Positions 29,349 through 59,056 of a stretch of DNA of 64,000 bases are shown in pieces. Numbering within the stretch: position 1 is the stretch's first letter; each line of letters begins with the position of its first letter. Origin of the DNA: Alphaproteobacteria bacterium (GTDB taxonomy: Bacteria; Pseudomonadota; Alphaproteobacteria; MPNO01; UBA830). The notes below the pieces were generated by a model. It was not told where the DNA came from. It was given only the letters and a program-made list of their open reading frames with translations, and did no database searches. A program made the position numbers and the translations under genes. Location of the stretch: NCBI GenBank assembly GCA_964291215.2, contig OZ219791.1, positions 1,856,001 to 1,920,000 of the forward strand, given 5' to 3'.

Positions 29349-29424
29349 CGGCCTGTCTCCCGGTCCAGAGAGTGCCTCGTGTCGTTATTATTCACGGAAT
29401 GGTGTTCGCAGCAAGGCTGTTCCG

Positions 29425-29607
29425 CAGGGCTCTTCTTTTGTCCGGTTTCGTCCGACGAGGGGCGTTGTAGGCAGATCTGGAGGTCCATTCGGGAGCGGAT
29501 TTCGTTGTCGATATGCCGGTTCCGACCTTGTGACGGTGCTACCAACTTCAAGAACGGCCACTCTGACACGGTTGTCCGCCGCCGATCGCGACATCAGAAT
29601 GGTCCCG
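29425..29607. mobile_element. ISAs1-type MITE copy A (about 183 bp)
   Basis: CAGGGCTCTTC...GAATGGTCCCG; perfect 10-bp TSD GGCTGTTCCG at 29415-29424 and 29608-29617. Confidence 0.85.
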
Positions 29608-29617
29608 GGCTGTTCCG

Positions 29618-29801
29618 CAGGGCTCTTCTTTTGTCCGGTTTCGTCCGACGAGGGGGCGTTGTAGGCAGATCTGGAGGTCCATTCAGGAGCGGATTTCGTT
29701 GTCGATATGCCGGTTTCGACCTTGAGACGGTGCCACCAACTTCAAGAACGGCCACTCTGACACGGTTGTCCGTCGCCGATCGCAACAACAGAATGGTCCT
29801 G
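29618..29801. mobile_element. ISAs1-type MITE copy B, tandem to copy A
   Basis: Near-identical to copy A; ends GAATGGTCCTG; right flank lacks the TSD. Confidence 0.85.
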
Positions 29802-34941: not shown

Positions 34942-36574
34942 GACCCCATCCTCCCGTGTCGAATTCCAAACCTGCGCCGCAGCCGCACGGCCGCAACAAT
35001 TCCATCATAACAATCCATAACCCGTCCGCAGGCCGGTTTCAAGGCGCGCCGCGCCCGATACACGGCGATCCCACGCCAGGTTTGTTGGAAGGGTCGGTTT
35101 CGCTTGTTCAAGATGATTCGCATTTTCGCTGGCTTTTTGTGAAGCGGCGTAGTATCCGTTGTCGTGGAGGCAGCGGATTTTTTTGAGACGACTCTGGAGG
35201 GTTTTGCGCTCCGGGATGTGGTTGTGCGCCTTGCGCGGCCTGGTGCCGCTGGAATCGTGTCGTTGACCGTATCTTGGTTTCAAGCAGCTTGCCGGTCGAT
35301 GTCTGCGTGTTCACCTGGCGCGGGCGGTGGATTGGCGCTGCGGGCTGGCAGACGGGCGCCCTCGGCTGCGCACCCGTTGGATTGGCTGGCGCCGCGAGGA
35401 ACAGTTCAGGCGGTTGCCGGGAACAACACGAGGTTTGTTGTTCCTGGTGGTCGTTTCCGGGCCTTGCCTCGTTTGCGTTGTCGCGGATGGTGCGGCGGCG
35501 ACCGGGAGGCTGCCGTTGCTTGTTGCGGAGAAGTTTGTCTCGCCGACGAAGTTCAGCGGCACCATGTACAAGGCGGCGAACCGGGAGTGCGCTGGCAGGA
35601 GCCATGCGCGCGCTAGCGGGCGCCGACCGGGGAGGCGAAGGATCCTTACGTATTTCCGCTGCGTCGTGACGTCGGTTGCAGGATCGTTCGCCGCTTCCTG
35701 CGGCGTGGGAGTTGCGGGCGCCGCTGGTCGGCGCAGGAGTTGCGCTCGATTTATCAGCGGCGCTTTCCGGCGCGCGCAGGGGCATCGCCGGTGCGCAGAA
35801 TGTGCTGCGTCGTCTCAGCGCCGCTTTCCGGCGCGCGCAGGGGCATCGCCTCGGTACTGTGCGTGATGGCGCGGCTTGCGAACCGGCGCGGTTGCGGCGG
35901 CGCACTACGACGCAGAAGGAGCTGGAGCAGCGTGGAAGAACAGGGACAAGCCGACCTCCAGATCGACCGTGCACCGGGTGCTGCAGAACACCGACCCGGG
36001 ATGGATCGAGGATGCGGCGCGCAGCCGCAGGTCGGCAACGCGGTCGACGGCAAGCGCATCCGCGGCCGCACCGGCGAGGATCATTACGAGACAGTCTCGC
36101 TGGCACGGGACCGGTATGCCGGTATTCGATCCTCAACTATCACGACGGGGAGATCGCTGCCGTCCACGCCGCGACGGCCGTCTGCTCACCCTCGACGCGC
36201 TCCACACCACCCGCGAGGCTGATCATCGAGACCCATCGCGCGGACTGATGGTCAAGGGCAACGCACCTTCGAGAGAGCATCAACTGGAAGACCGCCAGCG
36301 CTACAACGAAAAGCCCGCGCATGGCCGCCAGCGCACCATCTTCACCCCGCTGGCGAAGATGATCAACTAGCAGATCTTCCGCGTCACCCGGCGCGTCGAA
36401 TTCAAGAAATCCAGAAAACCGAATACGCCATATGACCAGGTTTTGTCCCCTTGATGATGAAATCATCCACAGCAGTTGGGGGCGGGAAAATGTGGATCTG
36501 TGGGAGAGCGTCCGGTTTATGGTTGCAGAGAGATTCCGCTCCCCTGAGCGAACACGCACAAGGGATCAAACGAT

Positions 36575-36698
36575 CTCCGCGAAGGTTGCCGTTTTGACCT
36601 TGACAGAGCCGCGTCCGAGTTTGGCAACCTCCCTTGACGTCCCTCGCTGGATGCCTGGGTTTGAACCCGTATTATCACAAGGCGAGGAGCAAGGGACG
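36575..36698 (+). ncRNA. Putative IS110 bridge RNA, copy A
   Basis: Stem AGGTTGCC/GGCAACCT enclosing TTGACCT and GTCCGAG; second stem CGTCCCT/AGGGACG enclosing TGGATGC, which equals the element right end. Confidence 0.55.
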
Positions 36699-37314
36699 AT
36701 GGTCAAGGTAGTAGCAGGGGTCAGCCAGTCTGGACATCTGGCGCATTGTTTTGCGAACGACGCCACGGGCAGGTGGCTTCGCGGCCTCGGGGTGAGCCGG
36801 GTGGTGGGCGACAGGCCGCTATCACCGCAAGGTTCACCAGTGTCTTCATGACCGGGGCTTCGAGGTTATTCTCGTCAACCCGTTGCGGGCGCTTCGCCGA
36901 GGCGATGGGCCAACCGCGTCGACGCCAAGATCGGCTGGGCGATCTTGAGCCTGTGGCTCCGCCTTCCTCAAGAGCCTGGAGGATCTCTTGGTGCCGCGCT
37001 TGTCGACGCCAAGCAGGTGGCAGATGAGGTGGATGGCGAGACCGTCACAAGGGCCTCGGCGGCCGATCTCGATGATTGCATTGCCGGCGCGGCGATCAAA
37101 GCGGTGATCACCGGTGATCCCGAGCAGAGGTACGCCATCCTGACCTCGATCCGGTGACCGCCGCGGCCCTTCTGGATGCCCGAACTCGGCAGCGTCGGCA
37201 GCCTTGATCGGGGTGGCGCCAACGACCACGGTGCTCGGCACATCCGTGGCGGGCACCGAAGGCCACGTGATCTCCTGTTCATGGCCGCAACCGGCACGCT
37301 TCAACGCGGACCTA

Positions 37315-38464
37315 GTGTCTTGTCATTCGTCAAATGTCGAATAAAGGCGTTTGAGTTTCACGCGGGCATCGTCGGTGGTGAACTGCCAATCCACCTTGGC
37401 CTGAATGCGGTCGCCTGCCAGGCGGCGACTTCCCGGCGTAGCACCTCGATGCAGTCGATGCGGCGGTTCAGGCGGATCATGACGTTGAGTTCGACCACGT
37501 TCAGCCAACTGCCGTGCTTGGGGGTGTAGACGAACTCGAAGCGGTCCCACAGGGCCTTGGCCTCGTCCGGCGGGTAGGCCTCGTAGAGGGCGCCGGGGAG
37601 TGTTGAGATTGTCCATCACCAGGGTGATGGTGGTGGCATCTTGGTAGCGCCCGGCGATGTCGGCCAGGAACTGCGCCCAATCGATCTTGCGCTCGGTTAC
37701 CTTGGTCATGCGCTTGCCGGCCAGGGGTTCCGTGGCCATGAAGAAGTTGCAGGTACCGCAACGTCGATACTCGTAGTCGTTACGCCCGTCCCGGCGCCAT
37801 GGCGATCGGTTGCCGTGTCTCGCCGGTCGGGGCGTTTCGTCCATGCAGACCACGGGGAAGGCGGCGGGGCGGCGATAGACATCGAGTACCTTCTCCATCG
37901 CTGCGGCGAAGTCGGCGTTCCCTTGAGGAGGAATCACCCACCCAACCCGCTGCCATGGCTTGAGGCAGTTTTTTTTAGAACACGTCGCACCGTCTCGTGT
38001 GACACGGTGTAACCAAGCTCGACAACGCGGTCGGCCAGCAGCTGCAACGACCATTGCGCGTAACCCTCAGGCGGTTCACCACAACTCAGAGCCACCAAGC
38101 GCGCCTCGAAGACGCCGTCGGCTTTTCGCATATAGGTAGGACGGCGTCCTTGCCGGCCACCCAATGCCGCCTCCAGCCCCTCGAAACGCTTCTTTACTCG
38201 GTCTACTTTGCACATGCTGATGCGCAGAATCTCAGCAATGACCTTCCCGGTCATCTGGCATTCATTGAACGCGCTCTCGTCGCAGTTAAGCAGGATCAGG
38301 GCGTTGATTACCTTTTGCGACAGGTGCGAGCCCTTGGTCGTGATCTCCGAAAGTTCTGCCCGTTCGTCCAGGGTCACCACGTAGCGTTTCATACTCCGAC
38401 CTCCATCCCGAATGGACGGACAGTCTAGCACCAAATGTACGACATATCATTGCTGACATAACAC
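37315..38464 (-). mobile_element. IS630-family element with two ORFs, degraded
   Basis: TA duplicated at 37313-37314 and 38465-38466; IR GTGTCTTGTCA / TGACATAACAC; VCMDE, DYEYRRCGT, LVMDNLNT; A8 slippery site at 37969-37976. Confidence 0.88.
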
Positions 38465-38608
38465 TAGTGTTCGAGCGCCTCAAGACTGCCGGCAAGGCCC
38501 ACAAAGTCGCGATTGTCGCCGTGATGCGCAAGCTCTGGCGAACACCTTGCTGCGACAGCAGCGTTGCCTGAAGCACCGGCACGGTGAGTGAGCGAAGGAG
38601 ACACCCTC

Positions 38609-38800
38609 ATGGCCCTCACCCCTGCCGAGAGCGCGATCGGGACTGTCTCGACAGTCTCCCTCTACGACACGACTTGGGGAGAATGTCTGCAGATCATCGT
38701 CGAGGTCGACATCAAGGAGATCGAACCGCCTTGGGACACCTGGAACCCGGACGGTCACGTTACCATGCCCGGGGACGGCAAGGTAGCCGCGTTCACGTGA
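38609..38800 (+). pseudogene. Small passenger ORF of IS110 copy A
   Basis: GGAG SD then MALTPAE...SLYDTTWGECLQIIVEVDIKEIEPP; homologous to 57967-58224. Confidence 0.55.
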
Positions 38801-39496
38801 CCAATGGACGGCAACCCGCCGCCGGGACCACAAGCTTCATGTCGCCTCGCTCGCAGAGCAAACCCCACACCGCTTGTGGACAACCACAGAAAACATCACC
38901 ACAGACACCCGCAAAAACCTTGCCAAGAAACATGGATGCTCGGTCGAACGCGCCTCGCCGCAACAGTTGCTCGCATGGAATCGCGGACACCGGGTAGTCG
39001 AGAGCCATCATCATGTCCGCGACGCCACCTTCCGCGAAGACGACTCCATGCTCCGAACGCGCCCGCAAACAACGCGATCACCCTCGCAATCATCATCCAC
39101 AACAAGCGCAAGCTGCGCAAACCCTTCAACAGCTTCCCACCATGCCGACAAGCGCAAGCAGGTCCTGCACGCAATCACAAGACCAGGCTGACCGCGCCTC
39201 TCTGCCCGACAGAAACCGCAAGCTTTCGAGCCCGGCAACCAAACCCGGCAGGCCTCTCGCTCGCCCCGGATACGCCGACCAATCGCGCCCCGCGCCGCAA
39301 CAGCGCGTCAGCAAATCTCAAAATCGCAGTCTCGAACGCGTCGACCCGCGCCGCGATCAGGACTCCGATCACATCACATCAACAAGCATGGAATCACCTT
39401 GCCGTGGGGTGCCTGCGGCAATCTGGACATGGCAGGCCATCCCGACTAACGTTGGTGTCGGACCCGCTGCCGGGCGCCCTCCAACAGGAGATCGTC

Positions 39497-54507: not shown

Positions 54508-56105
54508 GTGCCCGCGCGGAAATGACCGTTTTGGCTGAGATTCCGGCGAAATTTCTGGTTTGATCGCCCTTCCGGGTCCTGCCCCGTTTTCGGGGGGATT
54601 CCTGCTGATTCGCAGTGGTATGAGGGCTCTTCCAACCGAGAAGCCGGACAAGCGGCTCCGTTCCCGCTCTCGGCGGGTGGGTGGGGTGGAGGGACGCCGC
54701 CGTCAGGCGGCGCGTTTTCGTCGTCGTCGGGCCTGTCTGTGCAACAGCAGGCGGTGGACATTGAAGGCCACCATGGACAGCGCCACCATCCGCGCAAAGC
54801 CGTCCACTCCATAGGACAGGACCCGGTCCATGCCGCGTTGCTCAAGATTGTTGATCGCCGACTCCACGTGCTGTCGGCGCATCTCCCGGAACGTCGTCTC
54901 AGCTTCCCGGTCCGCCCGACCAAGCTTTCCCTTCTTCGGCAGCGCGTCCAGCAGTTCGTCCAGTGCAATCCGATGGCTGTGGAACCCGTGATCGAAACTG
55001 CACAGGTCGGGGAAGCGAGCCTGTGCTTCCCATGGGTATGCCATGTCGCTGCCTTCCCACAGGATCCGGTGGTGCAGGAGGAAGCCGTGCTGGTCCTCCA
55101 GCACGGCCACCGGCACGCCGAGTTCCACCGGCACTTGCCTTTCACGCACCAGCGCTCCTCGAAGATCGAAAACACCTTCTCTTCCTGCGGGATCTTCTCG
55201 CCTTAGGCGGCGATCCACTTGGTCGATCTGCCGGCGGGCATGGTTGAGATACGACTGGATCTTGTGAATCCTGGAGGCCCCGACGCCCTTCTCCACAAGT
55301 GCCGAAACCGTCTCCTGCGCTCCAACTCCCGGCTGTCGTCGAGGTACCATCCTCCGAAGAGGCCCGCCGGAAACCTTCTGAAAGCGCTTCCCGCGACTCC
55401 GATGCTGCCACTGCCGCCACCCCCGCGAACACGGCCGCGCACCAGACAACGCATCGCATCCCACAGCAGGTTGACGTCCGTCGGGTAGTGCACCTCCACC
55501 ACGAACGAATCGCAGCGGCCCCGCAAAGGATCCGTCCGACTTGCTCTTGCGGACCATCGCATGGCCGCTCTCCGCCACCAGCTGCGATACCTTCTCCAGC
55601 ACTTCCGGCGTCAGATGGCTCACGTTCTCCAGCACCGTCCGATAGCTGTACCTCGTGTTGTCCCGGATATCGCCGTGGTCCAGGAACTTGCGAACCGTCT
55701 CGTTCACCAGCTCGTGCAGATGATCAAGGTCATACCCCAGGCCCTGCTTCAGGACACCAGGATCTTCCACAGCGCCGGGACGCTCTTTCCTGTGGGACAC
55801 TCTCGGAAGGATCCCCTCCTCCAGGATCTTGAACAGTCGGGTCGACGGGTCGGCATACACGTGCTGAATCCCGCGCATGTCATCCCGCGAGTCTTTGCTG
55901 AGATCGATCTTCTCGATCGCAACCTGGCCCAATTCCAGCTGCGGGCTGATGACATTTCGCCTGGCAATTCTCACGAAGTTTTCCGAAAATCCGGCGGATT
56001 TCCGGTTTGATCGGCCAATTCCCGCCCCAAAGCGAGATTCTTCGTCCCTTTTATATCAGGATTTCACCAAAAAAATCAATCGATTTTATATTTTTTCGCA
56101 GGCAC
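54508..56105 (-). mobile_element. ISNCY/IS5-like element, degraded
   Basis: IR GTGCCCGCG / CGCAGGCAC; 6-bp TSD TAATTC whose removal restores DTTFLN-YNSL; PQLELGQV..SRDD, RCDSFVVE.HYPTD, VESAINNLE. Confidence 0.82.
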
Positions 56106-56994
56106 TAATTCAGGAACGTCGTGTCCTGGATGGCAAGGATCCGGCGCTGCGGACGGCAGCGCTCCACCATCGCTTCCTGATGCCCCTCGAGGATATGGTC
56201 CATCGTCACCTCGGGGTTCGACAACAGACGGCAGGCCGCCTTCTGTTCCGCCTCGCCGGGGAAGATCATCGACAGGATCTCTCCGGGACGCTCATTCCAC
56301 GCCCATGGTGACAAGGCGGTCGCGGATGCGCACGTCACCGTGCTTGCTGCGGCTGTACTCCCTCATCGCCCGGTTGTCATCATCGACAAGGGGTGCGGCC
56401 TGGCCCATGACACGCTCCCGCCACGACATGTCTTGCCAAGCCAGGGGCTTCATCCACACCGCACGCCCTGGCCGGTGGCCCCGGGAGGTCGACCCGAGGT
56501 CATCTTCTCACAACGCTCCCGGCCTGCCGCCCTGCAGCTCGTGCCGGTGTGTTCGGGACCCGCATGGGCGCAGGCCGGAACCGGCGTCACTTCTCAGTCC
56601 GCAGCAAGCCGCCGGCAGGCCAGGACGTGGGAGGCCAGCTCCGGAACATTCACCGACGGAAGTATCAGCAAGCGAGCGTTGTTGACGACCTTGCCGAGGT
56701 GGACGTCACGCGCTCCCTGGGACCAGAAGTCGTCGCGCGCCTTCTGATGCCAATTGGCCGCACGGAACACCAAGCCGCCGAGGCGGCCGTAGCGCGACGA
56801 GGTGATCCGATAGCTCATCCGGGCGCCTCGCCCTTACATGATCAGGTTTTGTCCCCGTGATGATGCAATCACCCACAGCGGTCGGGGGCGGGAAAATGTG
56901 GACAGCCCCGACTGTGGGAGGGCGCCCGGTCCATGGTTGCAGAGAGATTCCGTTCCCCTGTGCGAACACGCACAGGGGAACGGGGATCAAACGA

Positions 56995-57136
56995 TCTCCG
57001 CGAAGGTTGCCGTTTCTGCCTTGGCCTTGCAGAGCCGTTCCCGAGCGTGGTCGACCAACCTCCCCTAGCGTCCCTTGCGTCCTGAATGGATGCCCGAGTT
57101 TGAGCCGTATCATCATGAGGCGAGGAGCAAGGGACG
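56995..57136 (+). ncRNA. Putative IS110 bridge RNA, copy B
   Basis: Two stem-loops (AGGTTG/CAACCT and CGTCCCTTGC/GCAAGGGACG) with segments matching the target and donor junctions. Confidence 0.65.
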
Positions 57137-57966
57137 ATGGTCAAGGTAGTGGCAGGGGTCAGCAAGGCCAGTCTGGACATCCGTGCGGCGGGTGCGTCGT
57201 TTTGCGAACGACGCCACGAGCTGGCGGGCACGTGGCTTCGCAGCCTCGAGGTGACCCGTGTGGTGATGGAGGCGACAGGCCGCTATCACCGCAGGGTTTA
57301 CCAGTGTCTTCATGACCGGGGCTTCGAGGTTGTCCTGCCCGCTGCGGGCCCGGCGTTTCGCCGAAGCGTTGGGCCATCTGGCCAACCGCGTTGACGCTGG
57401 CCAGGATCGGCACGGTGCGATCTCGAGCCTGTGGCCCCTCAGGAAGCCTTTCTCAACTGCCTGGGGGATCTCCTGGCATCGCGCGCCGCGCTTGTCGATG
57501 CCAGGCAGGTGGCAGATGAGGTGGATGACAAGACCGTCACAAGGGCCTCGGCGGCCGATTTCGATGATTGCCGGTGCGGCAATCAAAGCGGTGATCGCCG
57601 GTGATCCCGAGCAGAGGTACGGCATCCTGACCTCGATCCGGTGACCGCCGCCGCCCTTCTGGATGCCCGAACTCGGCAGCGTCGGCAGCCTTGATCGGGG
57701 TGGCGCCGATGGCCGACGACAGCGACCATGGTGCCCGGCACATCCGAGGCGGGCGCAGAAGGCCACGCGATCTCCTGTTCATGGCCGCAACCTCGGCGGC
57801 ACGCTTCAACGCGGACCTGGTGTTCGAACGCCTCGAGACCGCCGGCAAGCAAGGTCGCGATTGTCGCCGCGATGCGCAACGTGCTGGCGAACACCTTGCT
57901 GCGACAGCAGCGTTGCTGGTCGCCCGAAGCACCGGCACGGGTGACCTGCGAGCGAACGAAGGAGAC

Positions 57967-58224
57967 ACGGCTCTCGCCCCTGCCGAGAAGCAGCGCCGTT
58001 ATCGGGAACGCCGCAAATCCCCGTCGTCCACCACCGAAATCCCCGTCGTTCCCGTGCGCAACGCTGGCGCGATGCGGTGGCTCGGTGCGTTGCAGGAGCA
58101 CTGTCGGGACAGTTTCGACAGTCTCCCCGACTCCCCGCGCGACACGGCTTGCGGAGAACGTTTGCAGATCATCGTCGAGGCCGACATCGAGATCCTCGAA
58201 GAGATCGAACCGCCACGCGGCTAG
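57967..58224 (+). pseudogene. Small passenger ORF of IS110 copy B
   Basis: ALAPAEKQRRYRERRK...LQEHCRDSFDSLPDS.RDT..GERLQIIVEADIEILEEIEPPRG*GRD; start codon eroded. Confidence 0.6.
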
Positions 58225-58872
58225 GGACGGGACACCCGGAACTCCATTGAACGTGGTAACGTTACCATGCTCGGGGACGTTGGACGGCAAGGTGGCCGCG
58301 CTCACGTGACCAATGGACGGCAACCCGCCGCCGGGACCACAAGCTGCATGTCGCCTCGCTCGCAGGGCAAGGACAAGGCGGAACCCCGGACCGCCTGTGG
58401 ACAACCACGAAAAACATCACCGCGGACACCCGCAAAAACCTTGCCTGGAAACATGGATGCTCGGGATGCCAGGTCGCCATCATCGCCAGGCGCTTGTCCT
58501 CGCCGTCGCCGACCGGCTCCACGGTGGCCTCGCCAAGCTCCTCCAGAGAACATGCGAGTGGCTTGTCGGGATAGTCCCGTTCAAGGGTGCCGGTGTTGAG
58601 GCCATGAGGCCCTGGTGCAGGAAGGACGATGCCGAGCGCCGAGGCAAGATCAGGTAGGGCCGCACGCGGCAAGGCACAGCTCGCCCTTCGCGTTGCGCCA
58701 GTCCTCGCGCTTGCACAATCCCTGCGCCAAGGACGAGCGCGTGCCGCTCTCGGCAACCGACGCCGCCTTCAGCCAATCAACCGTCGTCGCGGACAGATTT
58801 CAAAAGCCAATTCTCATGGGCCACTATATTAAGGCCTCATGAACGAAGAGTTCATCATGGTTCGTTGAAAGG

Positions 58873-59056
58873 CAGGGCTCTTCTTTTGTCCGGTTTCGTC
58901 CGACGAGGGGGCGTTGTAGGCAGATCTGGAGGTCCATTCGGGAGCGGATTTCGTTGTCGATATGCCGGTTCCGACCTTGAGACGATGCCACCAACTTCAA
59001 GAACGGCCACTCTGACACGGTTGTCCGCCGCCGATCGCGACAACAGAATGGTCCTG
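58873..59056. mobile_element. ISAs1-type MITE copy C (184 bp)
   Basis: Near-identical to 29425 and 29618 copies; perfect 10-bp TSD CGTTGAAAGG. Confidence 0.9.

Follow-up and report, generated by a model that had tools for sequence, protein, structure and literature searches.

A broken CT-core element of the IS110 group in an alphaproteobacterial genome and the predicted IS621-type bridge RNA that likely guided its family

Bridge RNAs have been predicted in 85.7% of the catalogued IS110-group elements (PMC11208160), so a readable example is to be expected. In IS621 of Escherichia coli, which has a 177-nt bridge RNA (PMC11208160, PMC11208158; PDB 8WT6), a recombinase of the DEDD plus Ser type acts at a CT core. 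The RNA lies in the left end, with the target loop followed by the donor loop; the right donor guide is discontiguous, handshake bases are present, left guides are identical and right guides complementary to the top strand, and a promoter spans the joined ends. ISCro4 / IS622 (10.1101/2025.05.14.653916; PDB 9T56) is likewise a CT-core bridge recombinase with handshake guides. Here we analyse copy B, an IS110-group insertion sequence in a 64,000-nt stretch of the genome of an Alphaproteobacteria bacterium (assembly GCA_964291215.2, contig OZ219791.1, positions 1,856,001 to 1,920,000), called the window, whose coordinates are used throughout. We hold it highly probable that copy B is a broken CT-core member of this group, whose predicted IS621-type bridge RNA likely guided insertions while the family was active. 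The bridge-RNA design of copy B is already published; the element is real, mostly known and a modest variant, and the covariance-model tables in the IS621 supplements may already include this clade.

Copy B occupies 56835-58459 (1625 bp) with a CT core on each side, and the repeat that it interrupts resumes on its right. Eleven left-flank hits include empty paralogous copies of this repeat, three exact and one longer allele, which run uninterrupted through one CT, and 4 such sites continue with CGGGATGC. Contigs of runs X1 and X2 also join 56832 to 58460; these joints are likely paralogous sites, not proof of excision at the copy B locus. Among the joints listed for four contig sets, none leads from the right end back into the left; contigs drop rare forms. 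An earlier note on the window, made by a model from the letters alone, had bounded the element by CT; the single-CT paralogous sites and the X1 and X2 contigs bear this out, and all the strings and coordinates that it quoted are present. The empty site holds one core copy, as in the IS110 family, and copy B belongs to the IS110 group, with a CT core. A BLAST search of the 6.15-Mb genome found 65 left ends and 70 right ends of the family, and 57 full copies could be extracted. Among 40 other genomes searched for close relatives only one (G001) matched, over the RNA region alone.

The recombinase of copy B is a pseudogene, as the earlier note had said, and its IS110 identity is also confirmed. 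Its Pfam remnants fall below the cut-offs (E 5.7e-5 for PF01548 and 0.013 for PF02371), and a 168-aa fragment of another genome copy led to 315-aa proteins with up to 75% identity and both Pfam domains. All 41 homologues, which align to IS621 at E 2.6e-28, carry D9, E51, D93, D96 and S232, and these residues coincide with the catalytic residues given for IS621 (PMC11208158). Through the remnants and the intact homologues, then, the family shows the PF01548 DEDD domain and the PF02371 domain with the catalytic Ser that define IS110 elements. An apparent loss of the fourth Asp codon in copy B proved to be an alignment artefact, since the codon stands in the sequence. Intact relatives, from records mostly of Alphaproteobacteria, have the same ends and CT cores and measure 1758-1964 bp. 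Three of them have another left end of this family a short way downstream of the intact copy (L033:3656-4518, L041:4446-4496, L109:2618-2739).

The left end carries the two hairpins of the predicted bridge RNA. In 17 relatives 96% of the cells of this structure are paired and 11 of 34 pairs have changed on both sides; none of 500 shuffles was as high, and slid controls gave 29-53%. The target-loop-then-donor-loop layout named in the earlier note is thus supported, and the folding and covariation modelling that it had proposed did find structural covariation. The RNA model places the RNA upstream of the recombinase gene, as in the IS110 group, in 40 of the 53 loci searched, some of them from the training set. 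In the window's two copies it matches only upstream of the gene, and a right-end RNA of the IS1111 type was not found there; all 7 Rfam hits are weak and fall short of the gathering score of their family. Stem 1 of copy B pairs AGGTTG (57004-09) with CAACCT (57056-61), and stem 2 pairs 57069-78 with 57127-36. Stem 2 folds with pair probabilities of 0.85-0.99 and covers the Shine-Dalgarno sequence of the transposase in the predicted fold, as the earlier note had it, while stem 1 reaches 0.6-0.78 in the isolated RNA and 0.01 in the whole left end. The two hairpins with internal loops of the IS621 type are therefore supported by covariation, and copy B is a damaged allele of them: it lacks 6 nt of the basal stem of the target loop, and its RNA is likely non-functional. 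A second loss, of 5 nt, is seen on the opposite arm near 57051-57055 in 32 of the 57 copies (copy B is not one of them) and leaves a perfect shorter stem; the losses on the two arms may be coincidence or compensation.

When the left ends of the genome are aligned, two patches of the first hairpin vary within an otherwise constant scaffold, and the guide positions are about 5 times as variable (0.32 and 0.30) as the rest of the left end (0.06). Guides were compared with flanks in copies whose junction was intact and whose guide could be read, each distinct flank counting once; copies with deleted junctions or unreadable guides were excluded. On average 3.75 of 5 left-guide positions agreed with the left flank, compared with 2.86 after permutation (16 flanks, p 1e-4). 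For the right guide, scored against the reverse-complemented right flank, the corresponding values were 4.69 and 3.37 of 6 positions (p 5e-5, likewise 16 flanks). The same was found in other genomes, with 3.35 against 2.13 shuffled for the left guide and 4.6 against 2.2 for the right (20 pairs and p 5e-5 in each case). There, agreement of the right guide with the flank extends through the core and the next five bases, at 70-95% per position, and is weak at the sixth. Of the nine bases of the left guide the first two show no such agreement, and identical elements stand at unrelated sites, each fitting the guide. Target guides that covary with flanks on opposite strands, as in IS621, were thus found in two independent sets, and with them the covariation of loop segments with each copy's flanks for which the earlier note had called, both in the genome and in intact relatives.

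Like the donor loop of IS621, the second loop corresponds to the joined ends of the element. Donor sequences vary little in this set. ATGGATGC is present at 57086-93 and ATCATG at 57112-17. The former was correctly read as the left donor guide, equal to the right end plus core, and it is nearly invariant, as is the right end. Pairing of ATCATG with CATGAT of the left end holds in part: the match is present, but it needs a base private to copy B (1 of 42 intact left junctions), and the register of the family is a bulged pairing. In that register the guide reads CAAG in 4 of 4 copies whose left end starts with TGT and TAAG in 30 of the 32 readable copies that start with TAT. The handshake base is complementary to position 7 of the left guide in 15 of 17 relatives, a count that none of 500 shuffles attained; in 5 of these relatives both sides have changed. 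Sequence comparison hence upholds the assignment to an IS621-type bridge RNA lineage in layout, CT core, covarying guides and handshake. The features are collected in Table 1.

Table 1. Features of copy B and its surroundings (window coordinates)
Feature	Position	Strand	Basis and remarks
Interrupted host: decayed multi-copy repeat, DruA/DUF4338-like domain	56594..56818	-	PF14236 E 1e-7; paralogous empty copies
Left CT core	56833..56834	+	Sequence; single CT at empty paralogous sites
IS110-group element copy B, 1625 bp	56835..58459	+	Ends common to 65 left-end/70 right-end genome hits and intact relatives
Predicted -10 box of circle-junction promoter	56837..56842	+	CATGAT in B, TATGAC/TATGAT in other copies; putative function
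DnaA-box-like motif 1	56869..56877	+	2 mismatches in B; perfect in several intact relatives
DnaA-box-like motif 2	56897..56905	-	2 mismatches in B; faces motif 1, 19 nt away
Target-binding and donor-binding hairpins, predicted bridge RNA	56997..57139	+	17-relative model scores B 117.8 bits, E 1.4e-23
6-nt deletion site, target-loop basal stem	57009..57010	+	Common to 57/57 full copies
Left target guide in register	57013..57021	+	5 variable nt and CT core after 2 mostly unmatched nt; covariation with left flanks
Right target guide, core plus 5-6 nt	57038..57045	+	5/6 non-core positions match B's right flank
Left donor guide	57086..57094	+	8/9 identical to element right end plus core
Right donor guide, putative bulged pairing to left end	57109..57119	+	One position covaries with left-end base 2
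Donor-loop handshake guide	57120..57121	+	Pairs by its first base with position 7 of left target guide
Recombinase pseudogene, PF01548 and PF02371 remnants	57137..57944	+	First catalytic Asp codon deleted; about 14 frame-breaking deletions
Remnant of 96-aa passenger gene, no known family	57970..58233	+	Start codon lost; one stop inside match
10-bp palindrome	58256..58265	.	1-4 copies in right ends of close relatives
DnaA-box-like motif 3	58396..58404	-	1 mismatch; about 65 nt from right end
Predicted -35 box of circle-junction promoter	58441..58446	+	CTTG, same core distance in 8/9 lineage representatives
Right CT core	58460..58461	+	Sequence; whole-genome end comparison

Several observations weigh against the account of this family given here. 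The copies are related and the p-values of the guide tests are hence overstated. Two relatives (L044 and L048) were read one base out of register by the script and were kept, so that the left score is lowered. Some copies fit on one side and not on the other, as C2_1488754 with 5/5 on the left and 1/6 on the right. Free-RNA folding of copy B does not give open loops, and its inner target stem reaches 0.05 against 0.6 in the intact L041. The right end of the close clade (570-700 nt) is longer than the left (about 315 nt), unlike typical IS110-group elements, in which the left is the longer; this is because of a passenger gene, distant relatives without it having right ends near 100 nt, and the left-longer rule is a tendency and not absolute (PMC11208160). 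The binding of DnaA considered below would depend on a match to a consensus. Finally, the true left guide of copy B fits its own flank at 3 of 5 variable positions, so that its guides cannot be read off directly as matching their own site, as had been claimed. The guide pair that best fits this site (5/5 left, 5/6 right) belongs to two other copies; copy B is therefore likely a mosaic, and its poor left fit would follow from shuffling of guides and flanks between copies.

The passenger gene encodes 96 aa and, in the close clade, follows the recombinase inside the element ends (dN 0.084, dS 0.404, 45 pairs); its 55 matches in the genome all lie in the IS110 element. The protein has 1386 database relatives, and none of the 120 listed is named beyond 'hypothetical'. 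Searches found no Pfam or NCBIfam family (best: 7/75 members, weakly), no plasmid hit and no solved homologue, only unnamed Atlas clusters. At 21 other loci examined the gene follows IS21 istB in 4 (Pfam run on 3), and in genome G314 at least 4 copies have it behind an IS110-family gene (Pfam run on 2). This suggests a transposase-associated accessory family. In G314 there are 12 matches of the gene, beside an unrelated IS110-family gene; further loci are L037:641-931, L215, L216, L218, L191, L193, L206 and L208. The predicted protein model is all-helical (pLDDT 86.5, pTM 0.59), and from its basic N-terminal helix one might guess at a DNA-binding accessory. Copies of the 10-bp palindrome stand about 50-80 nt apart after the gene (e.g. 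L041:3092-3282). A link between gene and palindrome was considered and dropped, as it fails outside the close clade, the palindrome being absent beside the gene in other elements.

Once the ends join, the predicted -35 and -10 boxes of a putative sigma70-like promoter lie 17 nt apart. The -10 has 4-5 of 6 consensus bases, with alleles read from 42 intact junctions, and the base private to copy B weakens its own -10. The predicted -35 keeps its position in otherwise unalignable right ends; the ninth lineage representative also has CTTG at that distance, the script having chosen a nearer copy. No promoter was found in the integrated copy. Near both ends we observed DnaA-box-like motifs, scored against the 9-mer consensus. 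Within 340 nt before the gene such a box occurs in 28 of 50 homologous loci, many of them from the same genomes, against 0.008 per 340 nt farther upstream; the positive loci are 28 of the 33 nearer ones and 0 of the 17 metagenome loci at 36-44% identity. In nine lineage representatives the right ends hold 10 boxes and the left ends 11, where shuffles give 0.15 and 0.17, and 24 of the 29 perfect boxes of the genome fall within copies of the family. The consensus is thus matched above chance at conserved places. Outside the element, a perfect box with a near-match close by was seen at G000:C1:2314307, possibly an origin or a DnaA-regulated promoter.

We judge it possible, if somewhat unlikely, that these 9-mers are recombinase-bound subterminal repeats or arms of RNA or DNA hairpins instead of DnaA sites. 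They are predicted from sequence, and the two left-end motifs are mutually inverted, with a pairing probability of 0.6-0.9 in L073, L081 and L084. However, this probability is 0.37 or lower in the close clade, the right-end motif lies upstream of the predicted promoter and outside the RNA, and distant relatives carry 2-4 copies of the box in the same direction in an otherwise unalignable right end. In addition, DnaA binding at a transposon end has a precedent in Tn5 (PMC3347997). A hairpin-borne box of the primosome type was also considered; it is disfavoured in the close clade and favoured only in a few distant relatives.

As for the decay of the family, no intact recombinase was found among the 57 full copies, each of which has at least 7 frame-breaking deletions. 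Substitutions common to 5 or more copies have a pN/pS of 0.25 (33 synonymous vs 20) and singletons one of 0.92, and the two big clades differ by 17 synonymous and 15 other substitutions. To judge from these ratios, the shared substitutions reflect purifying selection on the recombinase and the singletons neutral change, so the guide lineages would have diverged while the recombinase worked and the decay would have come later. That dead copies instead kept moving non-autonomously, each with its own shortened bridge RNA and a recombinase from a helper copy now lost, seems unlikely to us. Such movement would explain deletions that are near-fixed across different target sites (the target-stem one in 57/57, the first-Asp one in 55/57) and the 5-nt deletion that restores a perfect shorter stem in 32 copies, and movement in trans of a transposase-less module has been proposed for ISPpu9 (PMC12288879). 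But the mostly synonymous shared substitutions speak for clades that diverged with a working recombinase, and the 12 shared deletions lie farther from clade-diagnostic substitutions than random sites do (median 42 vs 22 nt), which favours gene conversion. Furthermore, the only two intact IS110-family genes found belong to another length class. These two, open frames of 429-431 aa spared from decay, stand at G000:C1:480856-481836 and C1:883760-884740, and the family RNA model has no match at either locus.

The deletions have a character of their own. Compared with the intact L041, the medians for the 57 copies are 43 deletions and 2 insertions; sizes peak at 5-7 nt, and deletions of this size are close in number to substitutions in the element. 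Non-IS110 repeats behave likewise: 2196 of 3801 distinct indels measure 5-7 nt in 421 non-IS110 pieces, taken from a 450-piece sample of 2702. Among the sampled indels, microhomology of 3 nt or more is enriched (554 vs 163 expected) and deletion starts at ATC or GTC are about 2.9 times enriched; strict anchoring at ATC was rejected as weak (ATC 84/809 vs 29 expected, GTC 79 vs 28; 9/97 in the IS110 element). An assembly artefact as their cause is rejected, since the deleted forms also occur in contigs of other runs, among them a 151-nt record of run X3, from another study, that is identical to 57080-57230. Identical deletions occur across lineages that diverged under purifying selection, and 3 of the 12 shared ones sit 4-7 nt from a lineage-diagnostic substitution, which points to parallel events or to a founder that was already shortened. 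A candidate cause of the 5-7-nt deletions would be that mismatch repair passes over loops of at least 5 nt. Their regime departs from the spectrum published for bacterial pseudogenes, whose deletions follow a power law in size with a bias to multiples of three (PMC6054270).

Turning to the guides again, the earlier note was right about the right target guide TCCCGAG (57039-45) and the left donor guide, and it missed the register of the left target guide. It had taken this to be GCCTTGGCCT (57018-57027), whereas 57013-57021 is the position given by alignments of the genome copies and of intact relatives. When the 142-nt RNA region was dinucleotide-shuffled 3000 times, the left-target 8/10 match arose in 16%, the right-target 7-mer in 5.7%, the left-donor 8-mer in 0.2%, the right-donor 6-mer in 1.5%, and all four together in none; the set of four is above chance and the left-target match alone is not. 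It is very improbable that 57018-57027 is the guide all the same: the 8/10 match to the flank of copy B exists, but it is of a kind that shuffles readily yield, 57022-57025 form a nearly invariant inner stem (UG/CG, GC and GC pairs, 16-17/17 relatives) and the covarying columns sit 5 nt upstream. We give just as little credit to shared descent, or joint duplication of guide and flank, as the source of the guide-flank matches without RNA guidance: shared flanks are common (11 of the 38 copies with both ends intact stand at one single site, and multi-copy repeat makes up 26% of the genome), but the signal persists after collapse to distinct flanks and recurs in the identical elements at unrelated sites of other genomes, and descent would not account for a loop 190 nt inside the element that spells one flank and the reverse complement of the other.

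Regarding other copies and neighbours, many insertions of the family sit inside other repeats. Copy A, in the same window (36429-38938), has lost its left core through a junction deletion common to about 10 copies, and it is interrupted by an element of roughly 1.1 kb, which we take to be IS630-like; the surrounding remnant is presumably ISAs1-like. The minus strand of 54703-55974 holds the remains of an ISNCY-like transposase (NF033593, E 2e-40). Its peptide also matches flanking sequence of two other IS110 copies, and this remnant likely holds the empty target site of one guide pair. A 185-nt repeat at 29423-29801 and 58872-59056 of the window has three copies, two of them in tandem, and a piece of this repeat has gone into the right end of another element copy (L016).

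The family may have worked as follows; its expression, circles, binding and recombination are argued by analogy. As in IS621, the ends would join at CT and create the 17-nt-spacer promoter, which would transcribe the left end. The guides of the first loop match the insertion site and those of the second the element's own ends, as covariation shows. The 315-aa DEDD/Ser recombinase, intact in relatives, would exchange strands at CT, aided by the handshake bases. Guides diversified in the genome, with 18 guide pairs among the 62 copies with both guides readable and 18 distinct flank pairs among the 38 with both ends intact; part of these pairs are recombinants or post-decay mutants and not separate insertions. 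The family would then have died, with 5-7-nt deletions piling up and recombination between copies shuffling guides against flanks. The DnaA-like boxes, whose motifs are present on both sides of the junction promoter, likely let the host initiator tune this promoter or the synapse.

We offer as a tentative and doubtful idea that DnaA on the boxes licenses the excised circle for copying, or the bridge RNA for expression, with the help of the 96-aa protein common to circle-forming IS21 and IS110 elements. If this is true, the DnaA wiring would supply the host-factor step that is missing from RNA-guided copy-out transposition. Copy-out or excision of a single strand is reported in preprints (10.64898/2026.08.31.748434, 10.1101/2025.10.25.684509, PMC13626964), which leave the completion of the circle and its control open; the boxes and the shared passenger gene make this question directly testable. 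Moreover, one genome provides a natural reprogramming series of 18 guide pairs, and the intact relatives are ready candidates with a long natural right target guide. No RNA holder is listed among the sequencing runs. A literature search, with most subscription papers and supplements outside its scope, found nothing on point for the in-genome guide diversity, the 96-aa passenger gene or the 5-7-nt deletion pattern, and no paper joining DnaA or DnaA boxes with IS110 transposition or bridge RNA.

In comparison with known systems, the family agrees with IS621 in the type of recombinase, the CT core, the left-end RNA with its order of loops, the orientation of the guides, the discontiguous right donor guide and the handshake bases, and it would resemble it in a predicted promoter across the joined ends. 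It differs in a right target guide of core plus 5-6 nt, against 4 bp in wild-type IS621, although longer ones are noted in IS621 orthologues (PMC11208160, PMC11208158). It differs as well in the first two left-guide positions, which do not track the flank here, in the left end of about 315 nt, some 140 nt more than the IS621 RNA, and the right end of about 570-700 nt in the intact close relatives, with its passenger gene, in the DnaA-like boxes and in copy B being dead. With ISCro4 / IS622 it shares the CT core and the handshake guides; the homologue P0001 matches at E 4e-25, and the two are distant in sequence. Cargo-bearing IS110 elements (10.64898/2026.08.14.744561) also hold extra coding sequence inside their ends, but theirs is stress resistance or other adaptive cargo in elements over 2 kb, and here it is one small unnamed gene. 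Lastly, the outside end of Tn5/IS50 (PMC3347997) has a DnaA-type 9-mer at a transposon end, as this family appears to have; in Tn5 it is one DnaA site in a 19-bp end bound by a DDE transposase, whereas in the elements described here the motifs lie 30-100 nt inside both ends.

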